This document shows, piece after piece, positions 2,686 to 41,036 of a DNA stretch of 44,124 bases; within the stretch, counting starts at the first letter, position 1; every line of letters begins with the position of its first letter. This DNA is from an uncultured Candidatus Saccharibacteria bacterium (GTDB lineage: Bacteria; Patescibacteriota; Minisyncoccia; Phycocordibacterales; CAIZLB01), in the NCBI GenBank assembly GCA_964450605.1, contig CAYVEK010000002.1:153681-197804 (forward strand). Reading direction: 5' to 3'. The notes below the pieces were generated by a model that saw nothing but the letters and a program-made list of their open reading frames with translations, ran no database searches and was not told the origin of the DNA. The position numbers and the translations under genes are program-made.

Positions 2686-2774
2686 AAGATTTTCTTAATT
2701 ATATACTAGATTACTCTGCGCCCGAATGGGATACCCCACAGAGGCGCCCTTGTTGGCGGGCCCACTCCGACTCG

Positions 2775-2896
2775 CTCCTTACAGGAGCAGTACACCTTTG
2801 CGGTTTGACTCGGACAAACGTCCTCGCAAACATCGCAAAGCTTTTCGAGTCGGGGAAAAGCTACGCTTTTCCTAACTCTAGAGTACTGTGGTAACT
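2775..2896 (-). repeat. tRNA-associated structured repeat element, copy 1 (L1)
   Basis: A 64-nt core (2851-2788, minus sense GACTCGAAAAGCTTTGCG...CGCAAAGGTGTACTG) matches 12341-12404 with 1 mismatch. Flanking hairpins differ in sequence but keep their pairing. Lies directly 3' of tRNA-Trp. Confidence 0.6.
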
Positions 2897-2897
2897 G

Positions 2898-2969
2898 CGG
2901 GCCCACTCCGACTCGAACGGAGAACTGCGCGTTTGGAGTGCGATGTTTTACCATTGAAACTATAGGCCC
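2898..2969 (-). tRNA. tRNA-Trp (CCA), atypical weak anticodon stem
   Basis: Manual cloverleaf: acceptor GGGCCTA/TGGGCCC, D arm GTTT-CAATGGTA-AAAC, loop CTCCAAA, T arm CTCCG-TTCGAGT-CGGAG, discriminator G. Anticodon stem TCGCA/CGCGC has only 3 Watson-Crick pairs. Resembles E. coli tRNA-Trp. Confidence 0.7.
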
Positions 2970-12093: not shown

Positions 12094-12167
12094 GGCGTAG
12101 TGGCGAAGCTGGTTAACGCGGCGATCTGCAAAATCGATATGCGCCGGTTCGAATCCGGCCTACGCCT
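12094..12167 (+). tRNA. tRNA-Cys (GCA)
   Basis: Manual fold: acceptor GGCGTAG/CTACGCC, anticodon loop CTGCAAA, T arm GCCGG-TTCGAAT-CCGGC. Confidence 0.85.
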
Positions 12168-12180
12168 CAAAACAAAATAA

Positions 12181-12263
12181 GCCTTGGTGGTGGAATGGTA
12201 GACACGAGGGACTTAAAATCCCTTGGCAGCAATGCCGTGTGGGTTCGAGTCCCACCCGAGGCA
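12181..12263 (+). tRNA. tRNA-Leu (TAA)
   Basis: Manual fold: acceptor GCCTTGG/CCGAGGC, anticodon arm AGGGA-CTTAAAA-TCCCT, long variable arm, T arm GTGGG-TTCGAGT-CCCAC. Confidence 0.9.
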
Positions 12264-12270
12264 CATGAAC

Positions 12271-12299
12271 AAAAACACTCCCCTCCGGGAGTGTTTTTG
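12271..12299 (+). terminator. intrinsic terminator after the tRNA-Cys/tRNA-Leu pair
   Basis: AAAAACACTCCC-CTCC-GGGAGTGTTTTT. Confidence 0.75.
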
Positions 12300-12310
12300 T
12301 GTGTGCTGAG

Positions 12311-12434
12311 GAGAAAGACGCCGATGCGTCTTTCGGGTGTGACTCGAAAAGCTTTGCGATGTTTGCGAGGACGTTTGTCCGAGTCAAACCGCAAAGGTAT
12401 ACTGAAGCTGTAAGCTTCGAGTCTTGTATGGGCA
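12311..12434 (+). repeat. tRNA-associated structured repeat element, copy 2 (L2)
   Basis: Core 12341-12404 equals the reverse complement of 2788-2851 with 1 mismatch. Hairpins GAAAGACGC-CGAT-GCGTCTTTC and GAAGCT-GTA-AGCTTC replace the differently sequenced hairpins of L1. Confidence 0.6.
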
Positions 12435-12455: not shown

Positions 12456-13031
12456 CTACTTTACAACCTTAAACGAATTTACATACTTTCTATATTGATT
12501 TATAGCTTTTGCAAACTCTTTATTTGGAGCATGTATACTCATGACATATATATTCTTCTTATCGAACAACATATAATATCGAGCCTTAACATATGCATCT
12601 TCTCCATAAGAAATATTTGCACTGTATCCAGAAACTCCATTTATTGTTACTTTTGTGATATTTTTATCTAGCATTTCCCAGTACGGCATTGTACCTTCAA
12701 GGCTTTTCATTACCATATCCCAGAGATCTTTATTTGTAGGTTTTACTTTATACGCTTGAAAATAGGCATCATCTTGTTCTTTTCGCGAAGTAACTGTTAC
12801 AGAAAAAGCCAGATGATCCGTTGTGACTTTTCCTGATGGATCAATAATATTAACACCGGTACTCAAACTATTACCTCCCAACAAATCCATTGGTTTCGCT
12901 TCCCATCCTGCTGGTATTTCTATAGAAAAACCTTTCGGATCTTTATATACATTTTTCTTTACAGCTGCAACGACTTGGGTTGATATTAAAACTAAAGCCA
13001 AACTTAAAAATAATATTTTTTTCATACACAC
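12456..13031 (-). CDS. secreted hypothetical protein (N-terminal signal peptide)
   Basis: 191 aa, MCMKKILFLSLALVLISTQVVAA signal-like N-terminus. No confident family. Confidence 0.65.
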   Translation of the reverse strand: MCMKKILFLSLALVLISTQVVAAVKKNVYKDPKGFSIEIPAGWEAKPMDLLGGNSLSTGVNIIDPSGKVTTDHLAFSVTVTSRKEQDDAYFQAYKVKPTNKDLWDMVMKSLEGTMPYWEMLDKNITKVTINGVSGYSANISYGEDAYVKARYYMLFDKKNIYVMSIHAPNKEFAKAINQYRKYVNSFKVVK

Positions 13032-13062
13032 AGTATATCACTATACAACCCTCTCATACACC

Positions 13063-14580
13063 TTACTTAACAGTATTTATATGCTTATCTAGTTCAATAA
13101 CCATTATTGTCGCATCGTCTGAAGCAACACCGTTATCAGCCATCCAATCCTCCAAAAGTTTACGAGCACGTACGTTATCTAAACTTAATAGAAATGCAGG
13201 GTTCAGATAGCTCTGACCAGTTTTTTTATCCACCACCCAAAACTCTGGATACTTATTCTTATTTCGTTCACCCACCTGTTTCCAGATTTCCTCCCTAGCC
13301 TTTTTCGTCTCATCAGATAATACTCTTCCCGAATCATCAGTTGTTGAGTTCTTCCACATCTCGCCTCTTGAAAAACACAACCTTGGATCATGTAGAAGCA
13401 TCTTTGTAATAAAATCAGAGGCAACAACTATTTTTCTTCCTGGTTTATATTCGATTGAACCATGTTTAATATTTTTATCATCAATAGATCGAACTTCACC
13501 ATTTTCTTTTATGGACAGAGATTGTGTTTCTGGATTTTTTAAATCCTCAACGATATCTTTATCTGTGTAGTTTGAATTATTTATCATTTTATCTTCCGTC
13601 ACAATCTCCCAGGATATTTTTCCCTCACTATCTGTATCAACAACAAAAATAGGACTATCACCAACACTTGACCATTCGATGGTCTGTGCTTTCTTGTCTA
13701 TTCGTACAGATGTTAGTGTTGAACTACCACCGCCTTCTATTGATATACTATTTTGTCTAATTTCACTATTTATGTCCGATAAAGATTCCCCTAATTTTTC
13801 CGAAGAAATAATATCTGATAATTTATGTGTGGCTCCAGAAGATACGATTTTCTTTGCCAACTTTGAAGAGACAGCTCCTGAGCTTTTTCTACTGGACACT
13901 CCATCACATACAGCCACACATAATGAATCCTCCCCATCTTCAACAGCAAATGCATCTTGACCATGCTGACCATTAAAATACAATCCATCGACAGCTCCAG
14001 TTACTCTATGTAATTCTTTTGGATCAAGATCTTCTGAAATGAGCTTACCTCTTTCAACAAAGATACTATCTTGTGCTTGCTCTGTGGCGTTGACAGCATC
14101 TTTAATATTTAAATCTTTTTTTATTTGTTCAACTTTTTTACCAGCCTGTTTTAATTTTGCATATTTTCTATAGTCCAAAATCATTTGATCAAATCTTTCA
14201 TTTGATTCTCTTCTTGCTACTTCGTCAACAAAAACAGCTCTTCTTGAATTCATGAGATCAATAAAAACTTCAACACCCTCTTCTGTATTAGCACAAGCAT
14301 CGGCCATATCTATATATTGTGCAGGAACAAGTGCCAATAATTCACTTTTAGGAAAAGATCTCGCCTCCTGTTCTTTTAACAAACGAGAAACCTCTTTATG
14401 CATAAAACCCTCAGGACTTAATCCTTCTAAAACTTTTTCCACCTCTTCACCTCCGTTTATTCGAGATAGATATTCTAACGCTTTTGCATGACCGGCTGAC
14501 TGAGGTTGACCTGTTTCTGCGCTCGACTCAACACCTCTTGTCTGTATCCCTTCTTCGGAAATATGAGCTGTTTCTTTCAT
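13063..14580 (-). CDS. PP2C-like (PP2C_2 family) phosphatase-domain protein with a long unknown N-terminal region
   Basis: 505 aa. GQDAFAVEDGEDSLCVAVCDGVSS... and a later VVASDF resemble PP2C/SpoIIE-type motifs, with the usual GG after DG replaced by SS. Confidence 0.55.
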   Translation of the reverse strand: MKETAHISEEGIQTRGVESSAETGQPQSAGHAKALEYLSRINGGEEVEKVLEGLSPEGFMHKEVSRLLKEQEARSFPKSELLALVPAQYIDMADACANTEEGVEVFIDLMNSRRAVFVDEVARRESNERFDQMILDYRKYAKLKQAGKKVEQIKKDLNIKDAVNATEQAQDSIFVERGKLISEDLDPKELHRVTGAVDGLYFNGQHGQDAFAVEDGEDSLCVAVCDGVSSRKSSGAVSSKLAKKIVSSGATHKLSDIISSEKLGESLSDINSEIRQNSISIEGGGSSTLTSVRIDKKAQTIEWSSVGDSPIFVVDTDSEGKISWEIVTEDKMINNSNYTDKDIVEDLKNPETQSLSIKENGEVRSIDDKNIKHGSIEYKPGRKIVVASDFITKMLLHDPRLCFSRGEMWKNSTTDDSGRVLSDETKKAREEIWKQVGERNKNKYPEFWVVDKKTGQSYLNPAFLLSLDNVRARKLLEDWMADNGVASDDATIMVIELDKHINTVK

Positions 14581-14595
14581 ATATACAGTATATCA

Positions 14596-15756
14596 CTATA
14601 CAACCCTTTCATACACCCTCTCCACTCTATCCACCATATGCCTCAAAGTAAACTTTTCAGGAAATTCCTCCTTAACTGTTTTCTTATGTTTAGGCATGTC
14701 CAACACTTTAACGATAGCCTCAGTCAAAAACTTGGCTGAACCCGCAGGAACAAGTGAAGTGGCTGCATACTGCTCTATCTCAGGAATACCACCCACCTCA
14801 GTAGCCACAAATGGCACATGGGCCAACATAGACTCAAGCAATGCATACGGAAAACCTTCTTTAACTGACGGCATGGCAAATACATCAAACGCTTTTAGAT
14901 ATCTGTAGGCCTCTGGCACAGCACCTACTAAGAAAAATATTGTTCCAATTTCAAGCTCCTCAATCTCTTTTTCTAATTCTTTTCGCAGATGACCTTCTCC
15001 TATAACTATAAATACAGTGTTTTTCAAATCTTTATATCTCTTTGCTAGATATGCAGAATGTATAAGATGGGTCACCCCTTTCGATTCATACAGGTTTGCA
15101 ACAAGTCCAACAACTTTAACCTCTTCACCAAAACTCAAACCGATCTTTTCAAACAAAGTTCTCCGCGCTTCTTTTTTTGTTAAGATCTTTTTTTCCATCA
15201 GTACATCATCTATACCATTATAGATAACTTCACCTTTATGTCTTGGTATAACATGCATCTTTCTACCAACATGCTGATCATATTTTGAAACAGTGATTGT
15301 ATAATTTCTAAAAAAGCGTGCAACAAACTCTGAAACAATATAAAACTTTTTTTTCAAACTACTCATTGGTTCATTAAAGACAAAACCATGAGCGGTGTAT
15401 ACAACTTTTACACCTGCCAAACGCGCCGCAACAGCTCCAACAGTACCAGCTTTGGAACTGTGTAGATGTACAACATCAGGTTTAATTCTTCGTACTAATT
15501 TAAAAATATTCCAAAAAGCTTTGATATCTTTAAACAGACTAACACTACGCTGTAAACCTTTAACGACATGTAAATTATGAATATCAAACTTAGCCTTTGT
15601 TAGCTCTCCAAATAACCAGCTATCTGAAGAGGTTTCCTGCTCACCTGTTGCTACGTGTACCGTATGACCATCACCTCGCATAAGTACAGCCATATCTCGT
15701 ATATGAACCTGAGCACCACCTCTTTCTCCTTGAGTTATGATTTGTAAGATTTTCAT
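14596..15756 (-). CDS. glycosyltransferase family 4 (GT-B)
   Basis: 386 aa. C-terminal EGFPYALLESM (E-x7-E type motif) and an N-terminal GGAQ-type start. Confidence 0.8.
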   Translation of the reverse strand: MKILQIITQGERGGAQVHIRDMAVLMRGDGHTVHVATGEQETSSDSWLFGELTKAKFDIHNLHVVKGLQRSVSLFKDIKAFWNIFKLVRRIKPDVVHLHSSKAGTVGAVAARLAGVKVVYTAHGFVFNEPMSSLKKKFYIVSEFVARFFRNYTITVSKYDQHVGRKMHVIPRHKGEVIYNGIDDVLMEKKILTKKEARRTLFEKIGLSFGEEVKVVGLVANLYESKGVTHLIHSAYLAKRYKDLKNTVFIVIGEGHLRKELEKEIEELEIGTIFFLVGAVPEAYRYLKAFDVFAMPSVKEGFPYALLESMLAHVPFVATEVGGIPEIEQYAATSLVPAGSAKFLTEAIVKVLDMPKHKKTVKEEFPEKFTLRHMVDRVERVYERVV

Positions 15757-28028: not shown

Positions 28029-28694
28029 TTATCTAACTTTGGAATTTTTTGGAGGAGTTTTTGGATTTACAGGTTTCTTAACATAATCACAAGCTTTCAT
28101 ACCTGTCGCAAATTCTGCCACTCGATTGGATACAAAACCCTGCGGCTCAACGCTAGATGTAAATGAACCTAAAAACACATCAGGATTTGGAAAATCTGAT
28201 GCCACTCCAGACATTCGTACTATACTTATATTTGTACAACCAGTTTTGGTACAAACACCCTTTTTAGGCTGTATAACAACTGAATCATCATTATTGTCTA
28301 TAGATGCATTTATCTCCATGAAGGCCAACTCATTAAAGAATGATATTTCAGCATTAGAGTTTGATTCAAACTTGTCAGGGAATAAATCACCTGGACTTGT
28401 ACTTTTTGGAACTGACCAAAAAGCGTATTCACATGTTCCACCGTCAGTCGTCGCCGTTGAGTCGTAGTTACAAGCTAGTGTATTTCGACAACCTGGTTTT
28501 GCAGGTTTGGTTGATACATCACCACTAGTAGGAGGTGGTGGAGGTGGAACAGTTCGAAATACTGAAGGATCTATTGCTAACAATGTTTCCGCCTGATCAC
28601 GTTCTACTTTTGATAGTTTTGCACTTTGCATATTGTAATATACAAGAGCTCCGACTCCTGCAACCAATATGAGTGCGATAATTATTTTTTTCAT
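28029..28694 (-). CDS. secreted/anchored protein with a Cys motif (GCRNTLACNYD...DGGTCEY), paralog A
   Basis: 221 aa. The N-terminal ~35 aa and the Cys motif are nearly identical to 40260-40997, while the central part has diverged. Confidence 0.7.
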   Translation of the reverse strand: MKKIIIALILVAGVGALVYYNMQSAKLSKVERDQAETLLAIDPSVFRTVPPPPPPTSGDVSTKPAKPGCRNTLACNYDSTATTDGGTCEYAFWSVPKSTSPGDLFPDKFESNSNAEISFFNELAFMEINASIDNNDDSVVIQPKKGVCTKTGCTNISIVRMSGVASDFPNPDVFLGSFTSSVEPQGFVSNRVAEFATGMKACDYVKKPVNPKTPPKNSKVR

Positions 28695-28722
28695 ATAGTG
28701 AATATTGTATCAATGAAAACTA

Positions 28723-29713: not shown

Positions 29714-32700
29714 TTATAACTTACGATTCTTATCATTCACAATTTCATTCATCTTCTTTCGTGTTTTGGGACCAACCACTCCGTAACCAGGATCTTTAGG
29801 CGATTTTACTATACCGTATTTTATTTGGAATTTACCTACAGCTTTCTTTGTAGCGGGACCATATATATCTGTTTCTTTGCCTGGAGAACCTGGTCCTTTT
29901 TTAGAAACTTGTGTTTCCGGATCAGAGTTTAGAATTTTTTGAATTGATACAACTGCGGGAGATTTTCCTTTACCTGTCGAAGAAGGCTTATCTTGAGGAG
30001 GGATTAAAGCTAGTTTTGAAGATTCTGAACTCCTGTTTTTATCTGAGCCTTGTTTTGTCTCAGTATCAAAAAAACGTTTTTTATCCGCATTAGAACTACT
30101 TCCACCAACTGGACCGATAACGGGTGTTCGTGCTGAGACTGTAGGACTAGAACTTATACTAAATACCCAACCAGAATTTTTTCCACTATCAACACATCCA
30201 GATGTACAGATTATTGATACTGGTCCAGTATTTACAACATTTGAAACAGATATATTTGAAACAGTAACTGATCCCACAGGATTTATCCGTATCACCGCAT
30301 TTGATCCGTTGATAAATTTTTGAATTCTATTATTGTCACCATCTGCAACATACAAATAATCTTTACCTGCATCAAAAGAAATACCGTACGGATTGTTTAG
30401 TTGGCCGAGCTGTGAACCGAATGATTCATATCTACCCATAAAGACACCTTCTGAACTGTATTTTTGTATATTACTGTCATAGTTTTGGGCAACATATATA
30501 TTGTTATCATTATCAATAGCCAATCCTGTTGGTATATACCTAAAACCACCATTTCCGTATGACTGTGTACCCATCCGACAACTAGATGTACATATCTCAA
30601 ACTGATCTGCGCCAGTTGCTACTCCCCAGCCCCACATTTTTAAGAAGTTATGATTGGAGTCAAATTTATCAACTCTGTAACCATAAGCGTTTACAACATA
30701 TATATCACCATCAGAATCAAAACCTATACCATACCCACCGTTGAGCGTACCTTCATACGATTGGCCAGAAGGCCAAGGTCCCCACTTACTTACAAAGACA
30801 CCTTCTGGGGTAAACTCTAGTACTGAATTTGCAGGCCTACTATTACCATAATACTGCGTAACAAAAACATTACCATTTGGCCCAACTTTTATACCGTGAG
30901 GATTCCACATCATACCATTAACATCTCGATTGCTGGTAGTGAGACCGATCCGACAACTAGATGTACATACCTCAAACTGATCTGCACCAGTTGCCACTCC
31001 CCAACCCCACATCTTTAAGAAGTTATGATTGGTGTCAAATTTTTGAACTCGATAATTTTTATTATCAGCAACATAAATATTTCCACTAGAATCAAAAGCT
31101 ATTCCAAGAGGGTTTGCAAATTGACCAGCCCCCGTTCCTGAAGAACCAAATTTACTTATAAAAGTTCCTGATGAAGTGAATTTTTGTATTCTATTGTTTT
31201 TAGTATCTGATACATACAGATCTCCATTGCTATCAACAGCCACTTCGTGAGGTGTGTTAAACTGACCGTTTCCTGTTCCAAGAGAACCGAAAGTTGAATG
31301 TGGTATAAGAATAGTGGAACCTTGCATGCCCACCACCAAAGGGTTTCCGCTTGTACCAGACAAATTTAATTGACCTAATATTGTTGTAGACGCCGATGGA
31401 CTAAAATATAGGGTCGATGATGATGTTTCAGTTTTTATAAGATTATAAAAAGTATTTTCTCCTGAAATAGTGTTCTCTGTACCAGAAAATATCACAGTTC
31501 CCTGATTAGCAATAAACACACCGCCATTTGTCCAATCACCAGTAACTGTTAAAGTGTTTCCGTTCAAATCTAGTGTACCCCCACTTGAAATAACAAGGTT
31601 GTGAACGGTCGTTTCTGAAAGTAGTGTTACTGTATTATTACTACCCCCTATAGTCACATTTGAAGAACTTGAAAAATTAACATCACCGCTACCGATCAAA
31701 GATCCACTTATCACAAGAGAACTACTTGCGGTAAATGGAGTGCTGTTCAGGTTCAAGGTTCCACCCGAATATACTGTGGTTGTTGCCGTTTGCAGTCCAG
31801 CCCCTGCAACAAATAAAGTACCTCCTGACAAAATAGATACGCTTCTTACATACCCCGATACTGGTAAAGCTGATGAAATAGCTAAGTCATATGTAGAACT
31901 AGCAAAGCTTACGTATCCTGTCGTTGAGCTTGAGATAGTTCCCTGATTATCAATAGTTCCATTTATAATAAGAGGAAACCCGTTAAGATTTAAAGTTGCT
32001 CCTGATGCTACAGTTAGATTATTTACAGTCGTCGTTGCAGTTAAAGTAACCGAGTTGTTTATAGTAACATCATCCGTAGTGGAAGGAACTTGTGATGCAA
32101 ATTTTTTAACTTTATGATTAGAACTGTCTGCTATAAATAAGTTCCCTTGATTGTCAGTTTTCAATCCTTCTGTAAAATAGCTAGACTCACCTGGAGCACC
32201 TATGGTCCACTTGGTTATATACACACCGGAAGATGTAAACTTCTGTATTCGGTTGTTATAATATTCACTAACATATACACTGTTTTGAGCATCAACCCAG
32301 ATATGTTTTGGTCCAGACAACTGTCCATTGCCTGTACCTGATGTTCCCCATTGGGTAACATATGTTCCTGATGAGTTAAATTTTTGGATACGATTGTTAT
32401 TCATATCCGTTACATACACATTACCTGTTGAATCAACTGCAACTCCCTGAGGTATTGAAAATTGACCATTACCCGTACCAAAAGTTCCCCATTGAGTAAC
32501 ATATGTTCCTGATGAGTTAAATTTTTGGACACGATTGTTTCCTGAATCAACAACATACACATTATCTGAACTATCTATAGCAATACCTATAGGAGAAGAA
32601 AACTGTCCATTGCCTGATCCTGATGTTCCCCATTGGGTAACATATGTTCCTGATGAGTTAAATTTTTGGACACGTTTTCTTATAGAATCAGCAACATATA

Positions 32701-34003
32701 CATTACCTGTAGAATCCACTGCAATACCATCAAGAGATTGGAACTGGCTATTACCTGTACCTGACGATCCCCATGCTGTTATATGATTACCAGAACTATC
32801 GAACTTATGAACTCTAAAGTTTGCATTTTCAATTACATATATTTCTTGTGAACTATTTATTGCTGAGTTTTTTGGTTGAAATACGGCGTCATAAGCAGGG
32901 TATCCTAAGAAGCTTGTGGTGTACACACCAGCTGATGTAAATTTTTGCACTCGGGCATTGTTAGTATCTGCAACATATACATTTCCAGAAGAATCCGTAG
33001 CTATTCCTTGTGGGGCAGAAAACTGTCCATTGCCTGATCCTGATGTTCCCCATTGGGTAACATATGTTCCTGATGAGTTAAATTTTTGGACACGGTTACC
33101 AACTTGTTCAACAACATACACGTTGCCAGAAGAGTCAGCAGCAACACCCGCGATAGCTTGAAATTGTCCGTTTCCTGTACCAAATGAACCCCATTTTGTA
33201 ATATAAGTACCTGTAGATGAAAATTTTTGAACTCGGGCGTTATTAATTTCTGAAACATACACATTATCACTTGAATCAATTGATATAGAGTTAGGTGCAT
33301 CTAACTGACCGTTACCTGATCCTTGCGTACCCCACTTGGTAACAAAATTTCCAGAAGAATCAAATTTTTGAATTCTATGTTGACCATATTGTGCCAGATA
33401 AATATACCCTGAACTATCGATAGCTATTCCAGAAATTGATCCTAACTGACCATCTCCTGAACCATACGTACCATTTTGGCACGTATTCAAAACTGTACAT
33501 TTTTCAAACTGGTTAGCTCCTGTTGCAACACCCCAACCTACCATCCACTCAAATTGCATTGACGAATTAAACTTGGCCAAACGAGAGTTAGTAGAATCTA
33601 CAATATATAAATTTCCAGACGAATCAGTCTCAGTATCTGTTACCGAAGTTAAATAACTATTACCAAAAACAGTTGTAACATTTCCAGGTTGTGTTGTTAT
33701 CTGTATTCGGTTAGAGTCCGATACATACAGACTATTACTAGTAGAATCAACAAATAATTTTGACGGATAACCGCTACTGAATCCAGAAATCTGTGCCCAA
33801 GCAGTTGAAGTTCCTATAGCACTTACGTATGCCGGGTTCCAAGTAGAAGTCGCTGTCCAGTTTCCATCAGACATACTGCTTGTGGTAATAGCACCTGTTT
33901 TTGTTGGAGCTATAGACAATACCCATATAACTAGTAAGAATACCCCTTTTAGCAAAAAAGAATTTTTAGAAAAAATACCCATATATTCCATCATATCAAA
34001 CAA
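29714..34003 (-). CDS. giant NHL-repeat (beta-propeller) surface protein with a central beta-helix-like repeat region and a C-terminal peptidoglycan-binding-like domain
   Basis: 1429 aa. N-terminal TM/signal. Many repeats of ..VQKFNSSGTYVTQWGTSGSGNGQFS.P.GIA.DSSGNVYV.D. C-terminal IQKILNSDPE...YGPATKKAVGKFQ resembles PG_binding_1. Exact start Met uncertain. Confidence 0.8.
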   Translation of the reverse strand: MFDMMEYMGIFSKNSFLLKGVFLLVIWVLSIAPTKTGAITTSSMSDGNWTATSTWNPAYVSAIGTSTAWAQISGFSSGYPSKLFVDSTSNSLYVSDSNRIQITTQPGNVTTVFGNSYLTSVTDTETDSSGNLYIVDSTNSRLAKFNSSMQFEWMVGWGVATGANQFEKCTVLNTCQNGTYGSGDGQLGSISGIAIDSSGYIYLAQYGQHRIQKFDSSGNFVTKWGTQGSGNGQLDAPNSISIDSSDNVYVSEINNARVQKFSSTGTYITKWGSFGTGNGQFQAIAGVAADSSGNVYVVEQVGNRVQKFNSSGTYVTQWGTSGSGNGQFSAPQGIATDSSGNVYVADTNNARVQKFTSAGVYTTSFLGYPAYDAVFQPKNSAINSSQEIYVIENANFRVHKFDSSGNHITAWGSSGTGNSQFQSLDGIAVDSTGNVYVADSIRKRVQKFNSSGTYVTQWGTSGSGNGQFSSPIGIAIDSSDNVYVVDSGNNRVQKFNSSGTYVTQWGTFGTGNGQFSIPQGVAVDSTGNVYVTDMNNNRIQKFNSSGTYVTQWGTSGTGNGQLSGPKHIWVDAQNSVYVSEYYNNRIQKFTSSGVYITKWTIGAPGESSYFTEGLKTDNQGNLFIADSSNHKVKKFASQVPSTTDDVTINNSVTLTATTTVNNLTVASGATLNLNGFPLIINGTIDNQGTISSSTTGYVSFASSTYDLAISSALPVSGYVRSVSILSGGTLFVAGAGLQTATTTVYSGGTLNLNSTPFTASSSLVISGSLIGSGDVNFSSSSNVTIGGSNNTVTLLSETTVHNLVISSGGTLDLNGNTLTVTGDWTNGGVFIANQGTVIFSGTENTISGENTFYNLIKTETSSSTLYFSPSASTTILGQLNLSGTSGNPLVVGMQGSTILIPHSTFGSLGTGNGQFNTPHEVAVDSNGDLYVSDTKNNRIQKFTSSGTFISKFGSSGTGAGQFANPLGIAFDSSGNIYVADNKNYRVQKFDTNHNFLKMWGWGVATGADQFEVCTSSCRIGLTTSNRDVNGMMWNPHGIKVGPNGNVFVTQYYGNSRPANSVLEFTPEGVFVSKWGPWPSGQSYEGTLNGGYGIGFDSDGDIYVVNAYGYRVDKFDSNHNFLKMWGWGVATGADQFEICTSSCRMGTQSYGNGGFRYIPTGLAIDNDNNIYVAQNYDSNIQKYSSEGVFMGRYESFGSQLGQLNNPYGISFDAGKDYLYVADGDNNRIQKFINGSNAVIRINPVGSVTVSNISVSNVVNTGPVSIICTSGCVDSGKNSGWVFSISSSPTVSARTPVIGPVGGSSSNADKKRFFDTETKQGSDKNRSSESSKLALIPPQDKPSSTGKGKSPAVVSIQKILNSDPETQVSKKGPGSPGKETDIYGPATKKAVGKFQIKYGIVKSPKDPGYGVVGPKTRKKMNEIVNDKNRKL

Positions 34004-34065: not shown

Positions 34066-34073
34066 CTATCTAG

Positions 34074-34146
34074 TGCGCGTGCTTGGGTTCGAACCAAGGA
34101 CCTTTCGAGTATCAGTCGAATGCTCTACCAACTGAGCTACACGCGC
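34074..34146 (-). tRNA. tRNA-Ile (GAT)
   Basis: Manual fold: GCGCGTG acceptor, anticodon arm TTCGA-CTGATAC-TCGAA, T arm CTTGG-TTCGAAC-CCAAG. Confidence 0.9.
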
Positions 34147-34577
34147 AATAAACGATATTATACATAAAAATCAACATTTGGCAATTGAATACTTGACAAT
34201 CTAAACTTGTATGATTACTATAAATCATGTCAACGGCGGGTTTGGTAGCCCAACGTTTGATCGCCACTGTGTGTGGAGGTTTGATCAGCCTTTGCACACA
34301 GTGTTTTAATTTGTATATATTCACGACACCAAAAGAAAAAACTTTCATGAACAGTATTCACAAAAGTTTTTTCTCCTTAATAGTTGAACATCATCGCGCC
34401 AAAGTTATAGAACTAATTAAATCTTTTATTTTGTTCTGTTCGGCCAGTCTTTCCTGAGGTCATAGTTTTACGTACTAGAACGTCTTACATACGGCAGGGT
34501 AAGATCCTGTGCATATTGCTATGCGAACGACCGTTATTAATCTTATAGCCTCATAACGAGACCATAAAACAGTTTTC

Positions 34578-36104
<1,527 letters not shown>

Positions 36105-40259: not shown

Positions 40260-40997
40260 TTATCGTTTGATTTTTGAATTTGTGGGAAAAGTCTTTTTAT
40301 TTACAGGAGTTGCTGGTTTTTCAACTTGATTACATGCTTTTCTTCCTTCGATATCTTTAATATCTGATGGAGTTCGACGATCATCTCTTTTGGCAACATA
40401 TCCAAATGGTGTGAAGGTAATATTTGATAGTGGATCAATCTGACTTGCAGGAGCGTTCCAGGTAACAATTGATACAAGTTGACATTTTGTTCCTGCGAGA
40501 CATTTCTTTAGAGGTTTTAGAATACTCTCTAAAGTATCCTTATTCTTAGAATCAAGAACATTACTCAGAGATGGGGGTGGGGGTGGAGGAATATTTTTTA
40601 TTTCTGAAGGATCAAAACCTGCCAACAACACACTCGCTTGATTTGTTTTACTCAACTTACCTTCTTGTTCAAGTTTTGCTGTTAACTGTTTCCACCAAGT
40701 AAACAGTTCATCTGAATCAGTTGATAGTGTGTAGAAGGAGTATTCACACACTCCACCGTCTTCAGTAGCGTCTTTGTCGTAGTTACAAGCTAGTGTATTT
40801 CGACAACCTGGTTTTGCAGGTTTGGTTGGACCTGTATTGATTGTACTTAGATTCACACGCAAAGGCTCACCTAGTTCTGCTAACAACACTCCCGCCTGAT
40901 CACGTTCTACTTTTGATAAGTTTGCACTTTGCATATTGTAATATACAAGAGCGCCAACTCCTGCAACCAATATGAGTGCGATAATTATTTTTTTCAT
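40260..40997 (-). CDS. secreted/anchored protein with a Cys motif (GCRNTLACNYD...DGGVCEY), paralog B
   Basis: 245 aa. 5' 106 nt are about 97% identical to 28589-28694, and there is a 53-nt perfect match (40776-40828 = 28461-28513). Confidence 0.7.
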   Translation of the reverse strand: MKKIIIALILVAGVGALVYYNMQSANLSKVERDQAGVLLAELGEPLRVNLSTINTGPTKPAKPGCRNTLACNYDKDATEDGGVCEYSFYTLSTDSDELFTWWKQLTAKLEQEGKLSKTNQASVLLAGFDPSEIKNIPPPPPPSLSNVLDSKNKDTLESILKPLKKCLAGTKCQLVSIVTWNAPASQIDPLSNITFTPFGYVAKRDDRRTPSDIKDIEGRKACNQVEKPATPVNKKTFPTNSKIKR

Positions 40998-41036
40998 ACT
41001 TATTATTATCTCACAACAACATAGTACTGCGCAAAT

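Follow-up and report, generated by a model that had tools for sequence, protein, structure and literature searches.

The window analysed here, a stretch of 44,124 nucleotides (nt) from an uncultured Candidatus Saccharibacteria bacterium (contig CAYVEK010000002.1), carries two copies of a folded repeat, which we name L1 (2756-2872, minus strand) and L2 (12313-12423, plus strand). Both belong to a large family of folded elements, about 100-170 nt long, that occurs in Saccharibacteria and in Patescibacteria related to them and is absent from Rfam 15. In our best reading, the family is probably a duplicative RNA module that mimics tRNA 3' ends, is co-transcribed with the tRNAs and works like the RtT element of Escherichia coli. 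If this is true, it constitutes a widespread, very strongly covarying RNA class that Rfam 15 lacks, in one of the major and little-understood branches of the bacteria, and it adds another, far larger case of the puzzling RtT design, namely a spacer RNA that carries a copy of a tRNA 3' end; the long-standing question of the purpose and origin of tRNA-linked repeats would then become testable by comparison and by biochemistry.

The folded repeat and its insertion at tRNA-Trp

The arms at 2769-2851 and 12341-12423 form by far the longest inverted repeat in the window (83 nt, 92% complementary). A first-pass annotation of this DNA, made from the letters alone, had pointed to a near-identical 64-nt core and had drawn a fold around it, and both hold: a single base of the core differs between L1 and L2, and the closing helix GACTCG/CGAGTC, the long hairpin and the 3' hairpin with its UGUAA loop are found in both copies. 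Fold-energy z-scores are -4.3 for L1 and -3.3 for L2, and none of 200 shuffles folds as well. P0 is a separate hairpin upstream, and it is followed by P1, AAAAG, P2, GURUACUG and P3, which abuts the P1 3' strand. The parts are as follows.

2897..2969, minus strand: tRNA-Trp(CCA), from ARAGORN, the Rfam tRNA model (49 bits) and the sequence
2897-2915, minus strand: direct repeat D1, the final 19 nt of tRNA-Trp (positions 56-74), CGAGTCGGAGTGGGCCCGC in tRNA sense, from the sequence
2873..2896, minus strand: L1 spacer between tRNA-Trp and P0, without a terminator and with a vestigial antisense segment
2854..2872, minus strand: L1 P0 hairpin, GGAAAAGC-GUA-GCUUUUCC, from the fold; a hairpin of ~9 base pairs (bp) stands at this fixed position family-wide
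2846..2853, minus strand: L1 P1 5' strand, CCGACUCG, antisense to tRNA-Trp positions 56-63
2841..2845, minus strand: L1 junction J1/2, AAAAG
2796..2840, minus strand: L1 P2, the long hairpin (CUUUGCG..CGCAAAG), with a tandem G.A internal loop
2788..2795, minus strand: L1 junction J2/3, GUGUACUG, of which the GUACUG portion is near-invariant across the family
2775..2787, minus strand: L1 P3 hairpin, CUCC-UGUAA-GGAG
2756..2774, minus strand: L1 direct repeat D2, an exact 19-nt direct copy of tRNA-Trp positions 56-74
12094-12168, plus strand: tRNA-Cys, preceding tRNA-Leu(UAA), from ARAGORN
12181..12264, plus strand: tRNA-Leu(UAA), the tRNA upstream of L2, from ARAGORN
12271..12300, plus strand: intrinsic-terminator-like hairpin AACACUCCC-CUCC-GGGAGUGUU with a U-run, between tRNA-Leu and L2, from the sequence
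12313..12334, plus strand: L2 P0 hairpin, GAAAGACGC-CGAU-GCGUCUUUC, from the fold
12341..12346, plus strand: L2 P1 5' strand, GACUCG
12347-12351, plus strand: L2 J1/2
12352-12396, plus strand: L2 P2
12397-12404, plus strand: L2 J2/3, GUAUACUG
12405..12417, plus strand: L2 P3 hairpin, AAGC-UGUAA-GCUU
12418..12423, plus strand: L2 P1 3' strand, CGAGUC

As proposed from the two copies, the differences in P3 are compensatory (three double changes, CTCC/GGAG versus AAGC/GCTT), the P0 hairpins are unrelated in sequence and the same in position, and both copies lie downstream of tRNA genes on the same strand according to ARAGORN. The CGAGTC that follows the 3' hairpin does pair with GACTCG, as had been suggested, and we correct its identity: the P1 CGAGUC strand is the start of a copy of the T-loop, the T-stem 3' strand and the acceptor 3' strand of the neighbouring tRNA, because the 19-nt repeat begins there. 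In L1 the first 8 nt of D2 (2767-2774) make up the P1 3' strand. In L2 the CGAGUC is the decayed remnant of such a copy of the tRNA-Leu T-loop and 3' end, of which 6 nt still match. The internal CCGAGTC, put forward as an alternative partner, is specific to P2 of the window lineage and is not conserved in the family. The P2 sequence itself is lineage-specific, as shown by a 22-mer taken from it that had zero matches in the JGI metagenomes. The terminator-like hairpin before L2 has the same layout in relatives; a simple scanner did not report it. A sigma-70-like TTGTCC-17-TATACT spans 12375-12403 of the window, with its -10 hexamer in J2/3 of L2, and in most family members J2/3 is GTGTACTG, a poorer -10 than that of L2.

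L1 is a true insertion. The final 19 nt of tRNA-Trp, CGAGUCGGAGUGGGCCCGC (positions 56-74), recur exactly (19/19) at 2756-2774, directly after P3. Three relatives (L010, L011 and L014), reached through the orthologue of ClpC (84% protein identity), have the empty site: their tRNA-Trp ends ..GCCCGCCA and runs directly into ACAAGGGCGCC.., as the sequence does after D2 of L1. From these empty sites and the identity of D1 and D2, it follows that L1 arose by an insertion of 141 nt in which 19 nt of the tRNA (positions 56-74) were duplicated. The encoded CCA of tRNA-Trp now stands after the second copy, D2, which together with 2754-2755 completes the genomic CCA of the ancestral gene. The insertion most likely dates to the common ancestor of the window organism and the Saccharibacteria metagenome-assembled genome (MAG) CAYIYJ01. 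The first-pass annotation had overlooked this duplication, the building of the closing helix from the T-arm of the local tRNA and the size of the family.

Two further observations concern these sites. The tRNA genes in the window (for example 12094-12168 and 12181-12264) and in most family loci end in N73-C-A.. and not in a full CCA, and the duplicated segment always ends after that C (N73-C). At L1 and at L047 the insertion splits an encoded CCA; we considered whether this is a general rule and rejected it, as CA follows only 4 of 36 D2 copies. A Logan contig from the same organism (L001, SRR11567520, 9402 nt) apparently ends, by position arithmetic, in the L1 core and in tRNA-Leu just before L2; as its end in L1 indicates, the repeat may break short-read assemblies.

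Family, covariation and linkage to tRNA genes

L1 and L2 had been described as a two-copy repeat, which they are not: the sequences analysed contain more than 130 copies. A search of relatives and metagenomes yielded a large family with compensatory changes. A loose pattern derived from the first copies (TCGAAA-N40-70-GTACTG-N4-TGTAA-N4-CGA) matched at least 120 metagenome stretches, a lower bound, versus 0 in 2.9 million viral contigs (IMG/VR), a zero that also serves as a control for chance matches of the pattern. Two exact-word scans of viral sequences gave no genuine match (L002 is a chance 18-mer), and blastn of L1 against phage and plasmid collections gave none. Likewise, L004, L006 and L008 (Acidobacteria, Pirellulales), from an 18-mer scan of genomes, were discarded as chance 18-mer matches. 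A covariance model (R1), built on 50 sequences with the structure set by hand and the alignment made by the model, finds 130 copies in 100 loci, some of them missed by the pattern. In the window it scores L1 at 78.7 bits and L2 at 77.0, and the next match at 16.8 bits (E=0.03). The named hosts are the Candidatus Saccharibacteria MAG CAYIYJ01 and one 'Patescibacteria group bacterium' (P0009/L013).

The covariation is strong. With the caveat that a model-fitted alignment favours the given structure, standard pairs occupy 83.5% of the pair cells of the family alignment versus 60.6% in shuffles, double changes occur in 31 of 33 base pairs, and the covariation score is 0.494, which none of 500 shuffles reaches (0.146), versus no more than 0.109 with the partners slid. 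P3 is paired in 99.4% of cases, with at least four pair types per position. RNAalifold on a plain MAFFT alignment recovered P3 alone. Because of the size of the effect and the slid-partner controls, we consider the fold secure despite the fitted alignment. P0 is a hairpin of ~9 bp, freely variable in sequence and at a fixed distance from P1, and P2 is conserved beyond Watson-Crick pairing in its tandem G.A loop and a recurrent G.G position.

The first-pass annotation could place the repeat in no known RNA family, and we agree. Rfam 15 scans at gathering and permissive thresholds of the window regions (to E<=10), both copies included, and of 19 family loci (to E<=1) gave only tRNA, rRNA and tmRNA matches, none of which overlaps a unit. 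Our literature search found no description of such an element in bacteria of the candidate phyla radiation (CPR); a meeting report that it surfaced deals with archaeal tRNA introns and CPR rRNA introns and not with such elements.

Distinct P2 subfamilies occur, and there are tandem arrays, made of identical units or of units from different subfamilies. The duplicated tRNA segment sometimes runs 3-12 nt into the trailer. A unit after a tmRNA gene (L090, 1338-1912) has an additional mini-hairpin of 16 nt, ACACGTATTCGCGGTG, placed after CGAT and before the copied 3' end; the same extra piece, AAGCGTACTCGCGG, marks a subfamily (L015, L037, L048, L113, L127 and L133). In L041, L066, L073, L096, L097 and L119 the place of the terminator is taken by an A/U-rich hairpin capped by GA-NN-GAA-NN-GA, for example AAAATTGAACGAAGTGAAATTTT. 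Such hairpins are frequent in units that have no terminator; the same cap closes P2 in many units, and the hairpin may be a second P2-like arm.

Adjacency to tRNA genes is the rule, holding for about two thirds of the copies and not for every one. A tRNA or tmRNA gene lies on the same strand within 400 nt upstream of 82 of the 132 pattern matches listed (74 at 48-96 nt; a further 18 matches have too little upstream sequence). Among model matches with enough sequence, 71 of 111 have a tRNA within 150 nt upstream, and only six have one downstream. The upstream genes cover 19 of the 20 standard isotypes (all but Phe) and one tmRNA. Of the 36 non-redundant units in which D1 and D2 share at least 15 identical nt, 34 have an exact 19/19 D2 copy of positions 56-74 of the upstream tRNA, and the P1 5' strand is antisense to the 3' half of the T-loop and the T-stem 3' strand of the same tRNA. 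Where the T-loop reads UUCAAGU, the UCG/CGA of P1 becomes UUG/CAA. In about a quarter of units P0 is also preceded by an antisense copy of the acceptor 3' strand, which can pair with D2 and prolongs the palindrome centred on the symmetric terminator; we had considered it a universal part and rejected this, since it is strong in only ~10 of 36 units. A terminator-like hairpin with a T-run lies between the tRNA and P0 in at least 40 of 70 tRNA-linked units, and some units lie in tRNA-tRNA spacers that have no terminator (two of the four in L096). The count of tRNA and tmRNA genes followed by a unit (72 of 127 in the collected loci) is biased by the way in which the loci were found; in some loci nearly every tRNA is so followed (all four in L096), and in the window two of seven are. 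One unit, in L103, follows a tRNA that ARAGORN assigns the anticodon UUA ('tRNA-Stop', 2519-2592), which may be a suppressor or recoding tRNA.

Scanning species-representative genomes with an 18-mer turned up four copies in the MAG CAYIYJ01, after tRNA-Trp, tRNA-Ser(UGA) and tRNA-Arg(GCG) and ~3.1 kb beyond the tRNA-Trp copy. Their P2 is near-identical to that of the window, P1, P0 and P3 differ in compensatory fashion, and P1 and the sequence that follows match the local tRNA (at tRNA-Ser, P1 is GGUGAGAUUCG/CGAAUCUCACC, then ..UCCUC). The tRNA-Trp copy is the orthologue of L1 and has the same duplication, but its P3 is AAGC/GCUU; it is identical to L2 over 83 of 83 nt, and the flanking genes share only ~80% DNA identity. 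The window equivalent of the site of the fourth copy (807-853) is empty. Orthologues of L2 follow tRNA-Leu(UAA) in L013, L010 and L028, with a larger variant in L014. They have compensatory changes in P2 and a U.G pair in P1, and in L010 the P2 sequence is wholly different; the junction motifs and the UGUAA loop are retained. We regard L2 as an old copy retained at the tRNA-Cys/tRNA-Leu locus.

The two MAG units on the tRNA-Trp side enclose a 3.1-kb island (L003 6078-8000 and L005 1-1157, contiguous on CAYIYJ010000001.1, downstream of tRNA-Trp) that encodes a 358-residue large serine recombinase (Resolvase, Recombinase and Zn_ribbon_recom domains), a SEC-C-motif protein and an open reading frame (ORF) of no assigned function. 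In L012 the left end of the island, TCGTGCTAGCACGAATAGGCTAG.., stands directly after tRNA-Trp-CCA with no unit, and a 443-residue serine recombinase is encoded ~4 kb away; because of this, island and unit are separate things. In the window, ~110-nt modules at 795-905 and 1649-1759, 76% identical, follow each of two tandem methyltransferase genes (940-1638 and 1797-2477), and each holds a pseudo-tRNA-Trp 3' end (..GGTTCTAGCACGnnnCGGCCCGCCAAT..) and a hairpin. The module at 795-905 is the empty site of the fourth MAG unit. These modules look like right-end scars of serine-recombinase islands, in which case the methyltransferases would be island cargo.

RNA module or DNA element

The first-pass annotation had favoured a functional RNA, or else a structured module that is mobile or att-associated, over random duplication, and the covariation, the tRNA adjacency and the filled and empty sites at L1 support this. 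We infer the transcription and release of the RNA, its processing by tRNA enzymes, its means of spread and any benefit to the cell along the following lines. The unit and its tRNA would share a transcript, the unit being reached by read-through or forming an operon spacer. From 5' to 3' a unit holds, often, an intrinsic terminator, sometimes the acceptor-antisense copy, then P0, P1 around a three-way junction, and D2, with AAA(A), the long P2 and its tandem G.A loop, GUACUG and the short P3 with its UGUAA loop inside P1. D2, corresponding to positions 54/56-74 of the local tRNA, supplies the P1 3' strand. When the RNA folds, P1, together with the outer helix in units that have one, would lock in the copied 3' half of the tRNA and so imitate the cognate acceptor/T-stem stack, and the conserved three-way junction under P1 presumably has a conserved binding partner. 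The module would be maintained by being carried along with tRNA transcription and probably with the processing of tRNA ends, as RtT is at tyrT, and new copies would arise duplicatively at other tRNA 3' ends. Insertions have two fixed landmarks, the T-loop and the 3' end after C74, and no other sequence blocks of tRNAs are as conserved as these; for this reason copy-choice or recombination there would be the simplest route of spread, in which D2 would automatically copy the recipient tRNA. The other route would be a trans-acting enzyme.

Several observations favour a reading as sense RNA: the constant orientation, the copies within operons, the non-Watson-Crick features, the old orthologues, in which D2 has decayed and compensatory change still preserves the core, and an excess of G.U in P1 (17 and 16 G.U versus 1 and 1 A.C at the T-stem positions). 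A number of points weigh against our reading. Over all helices G.U and A.C are equal (156 versus 163), partly since P2 is imperfectly aligned, so that it is P1 that carries the strand argument, and DNA hairpin stems, too, can gain compensatory changes through templated quasi-palindrome repair. As a terminator-like hairpin precedes at least 40 of 70 units, many units would be made only by read-through, and a promoter scan found none evident for the units, only the weak TTGTCC-17-TATACT inside L2. In units that have the outer helix, N73 and C74 are paired as well, which they are not in a tRNA acceptor end; neither ARAGORN nor the Rfam tRNA model calls the units tRNA-like; and we identified neither a trans-acting partner nor a process by which the P1 5' strand is matched to each new tRNA.

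The unit could instead be a non-autonomous DNA element of the kind of REPINs, attC sites or miniature inverted-repeat transposable elements (MITEs), whose folded single strand or cruciform is recognised by a recombinase or transposase acting in trans on the T-loop-to-3'-end segment, the RNA fold being incidental. The insertion polymorphism with its exact boundaries and 19-nt duplication, the tandem arrays and the distinct P2 subfamilies even within tandems all fit such an element, as do the near-identity of P2 among paralogues of one genome and between species whose flanking genes are ~80% identical, the overall equality of G.U and A.C, and the long terminator-centred palindrome that the antisense segment prolongs. 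Its targets would be tRNA and tmRNA 3' ends, as for integrases, and tRNA 3' ends are known integrase targets. We nevertheless regard this as unlikely. No protein recurs beside the units (654 ORFs within 4 kb of units at ~120 loci were clustered, and no cluster is present in more than 8 loci), and the duplication ranges from 19 to 31 nt, unlike a target duplication fixed by an enzyme. Three features speak for RNA, namely the tandem G.A, the G.G position and the surplus of G.U in P1; old orthologues keep the core through compensatory change once D2 has decayed, and some units sit inside tRNA-operon spacers.

A host module acting in cis on tRNA expression, as a terminator, insulator, processing or stability signal or folding spacer, and only occasionally copied by recombination, would account for the loci in which nearly every tRNA has a unit (four of four in L096), for the biased count of 72 of 127, for the strong symmetric terminator that opens most units, for their fixed position relative to the tRNA end and for the long retention of the L2 locus. 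Yet the window has a unit at just two of its seven tRNA genes, close relatives have none at tRNA-Trp, and a terminator or processing signal needs neither a 19-nt tRNA copy nor a conserved three-way junction, which makes this quite improbable in our view. Very improbable is that the units are attL/attR scars of tRNA-targeting islands, such as the serine-recombinase island beside the MAG tRNA-Trp copy. Direct repeats of the tRNA 3' end do flank L1, two CAYIYJ01 units do flank that 3.1-kb island, and pseudo-tRNA-Trp 3' ends follow each methyltransferase gene of the window; L012, however, has the same island end directly after tRNA-Trp-CCA with no unit, units occur at all tRNA isotypes without integrases, and deep covariation of the core is not expected of att arms. 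L012 and the absence of linked recombinases have already largely refuted this idea.

A bolder and doubtful proposal is that each unit might be a dedicated 'top-half' mimic of the neighbouring tRNA, cut out by RNase P or RNase Z, CCA-tailed and perhaps charged. It could then serve, specifically for its cognate tRNA, as a decoy, a sensor or a regulator of maturation or charging in organisms whose regulatory repertoires are minimal, or its tRNA-like-ended RNA could be the copying intermediate that reaches new tRNA genes. The units also duplicate the attB-like tRNA ends that islands use, and they could confuse the annotation of tRNA ends in Patescibacteria genomes.

Window surroundings and known systems

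Some features of the window lie outside this subject. In the region 34073-36104 a 16S rRNA gene (34578-36104, minus strand) precedes tRNA-Ile(GAU); no 23S rRNA match is found anywhere in the 44-kb window, and the rRNA genes therefore seem unlinked. Immediately downstream of tRNA-Ile and the 16S gene, an ORF of 1429 residues (29714-34003, minus strand) holds many diverged 141-nt (47-residue) tandem repeats (families D1-D6). Direct repeats at 28420-28695 and 40735-40998, 84-93% identical and ~12.3 kb apart, lie at the ends of ORFs 28029-28694 and 40260-40997, which are probably paralogous. A 47-nt direct repeat (13016-13062 and 14571-14617, 91% identical) stands at both ends of a PP2C-phosphatase ORF (13063-14580) and may be an upstream or promoter region shared by two consecutive minus-strand genes.

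We compared the family with known elements of similar location or form. Integrative elements reportedly target tRNA and tmRNA genes at a T-loop sublocation and thereby make att duplications. Like the family, these have a direct repeat from the T-loop to the 3' end, include tmRNA among their targets and leave the tRNA gene intact; the family differs in its units of ~120-170 nt, the lack of an integrase, its conserved covarying core and its antisense copy of the target. An att island at L1 was rejected, with 141 nt between the repeats, no recombinase recurring near units and the L012 island end standing without a unit. REP/REPIN, ERIC, Correia, RUP and other MITEs are likewise short, ORF-less, hairpin-forming, multicopy, uniform within a genome and divergent between lineages, and are often co-transcribed with neighbouring genes. 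The family departs from REP/REPIN-type repeats in its strict linkage to tRNA 3' ends, its single orientation, the templating of one part by the local tRNA and the lack of a known RAYT-like partner. It has no ORF and many copies, its inverted repeat is P1, built from the target, its duplication is 19 nt at L1 and 24-31 nt elsewhere, and it has no known transposase; it is probably not a standard MITE.

Among RNAs, the tRNA-like domain of tmRNA, mascRNA and viral tRNA-like structures are tRNA-like 3' modules, and 3'ETS-leuZ is a spacer RNA of the glyW-cysT-leuZ operon of E. coli. The family would share with them the imitation of the acceptor/T-stem stack and the use of tRNA transcription, and L2 follows the same cysT-leuZ gene pair as 3'ETS-leuZ. 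It differs in having no canonical T-loop and in receiving no call from tRNA models, and we rejected the unit as a tRNA or tRNA-like gene: ARAGORN and the Rfam tRNA model are silent, and the T-loop is split by the core. Small self-cleaving ribozymes with a three-way junction (hammerhead, twister-sister and others) were rejected for want of an Rfam match and on inspection, as the junction strands AAA(A)/GUACUG/none do not fit CUGANGA/GAAA/UH.

The closest known analogue, in design and location, is RtT (RF00391) of the E. coli tyrT-tyrV locus. Processing reportedly frees RtT from the tRNA transcript. What RtT does has yet to be clarified (bioRxiv 10.1101/2024.07.17.603846). Like the units described here, RtT lies directly 3' of tRNAs on the same strand, including between tandem tRNAs, and occurs in tandem, with four copies in strain K-12. 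Each RtT unit ends in a direct copy of tRNA-Tyr positions 58-76, AATCCTTCCCCCACCACCA, as our units end in a copy from the T-loop to the 3' end, and in both an internal antisense segment (GGGGAAGGAT in RtT) pairs with that copy and closes a multibranched fold. The differences are that RtT has no three-way junction of P0, P2 and P3, no GUACUG and no UGUAA, that it follows tRNA-Tyr (in the one E. coli K-12 locus examined) where the family follows 19 of 20 isotypes and tmRNA, and that the copy in the family ends at C74 and not at CCA. The RF00391 model (gathering threshold 45 bits) scores the E. coli copies at 133-137 bits and gave no match on L1 or L2 (E<=10) or on the 19 family loci (E<=1). Because sequence, core structure, isotype range and taxon differ and RF00391 gives no match, we file the family as RtT-like and not as RtT; by analogy, it appears to work like RtT, sitting 3' of a tRNA, ending in a copy of that tRNA from the T-loop to the 3' end and closed by internal antisense pairing.

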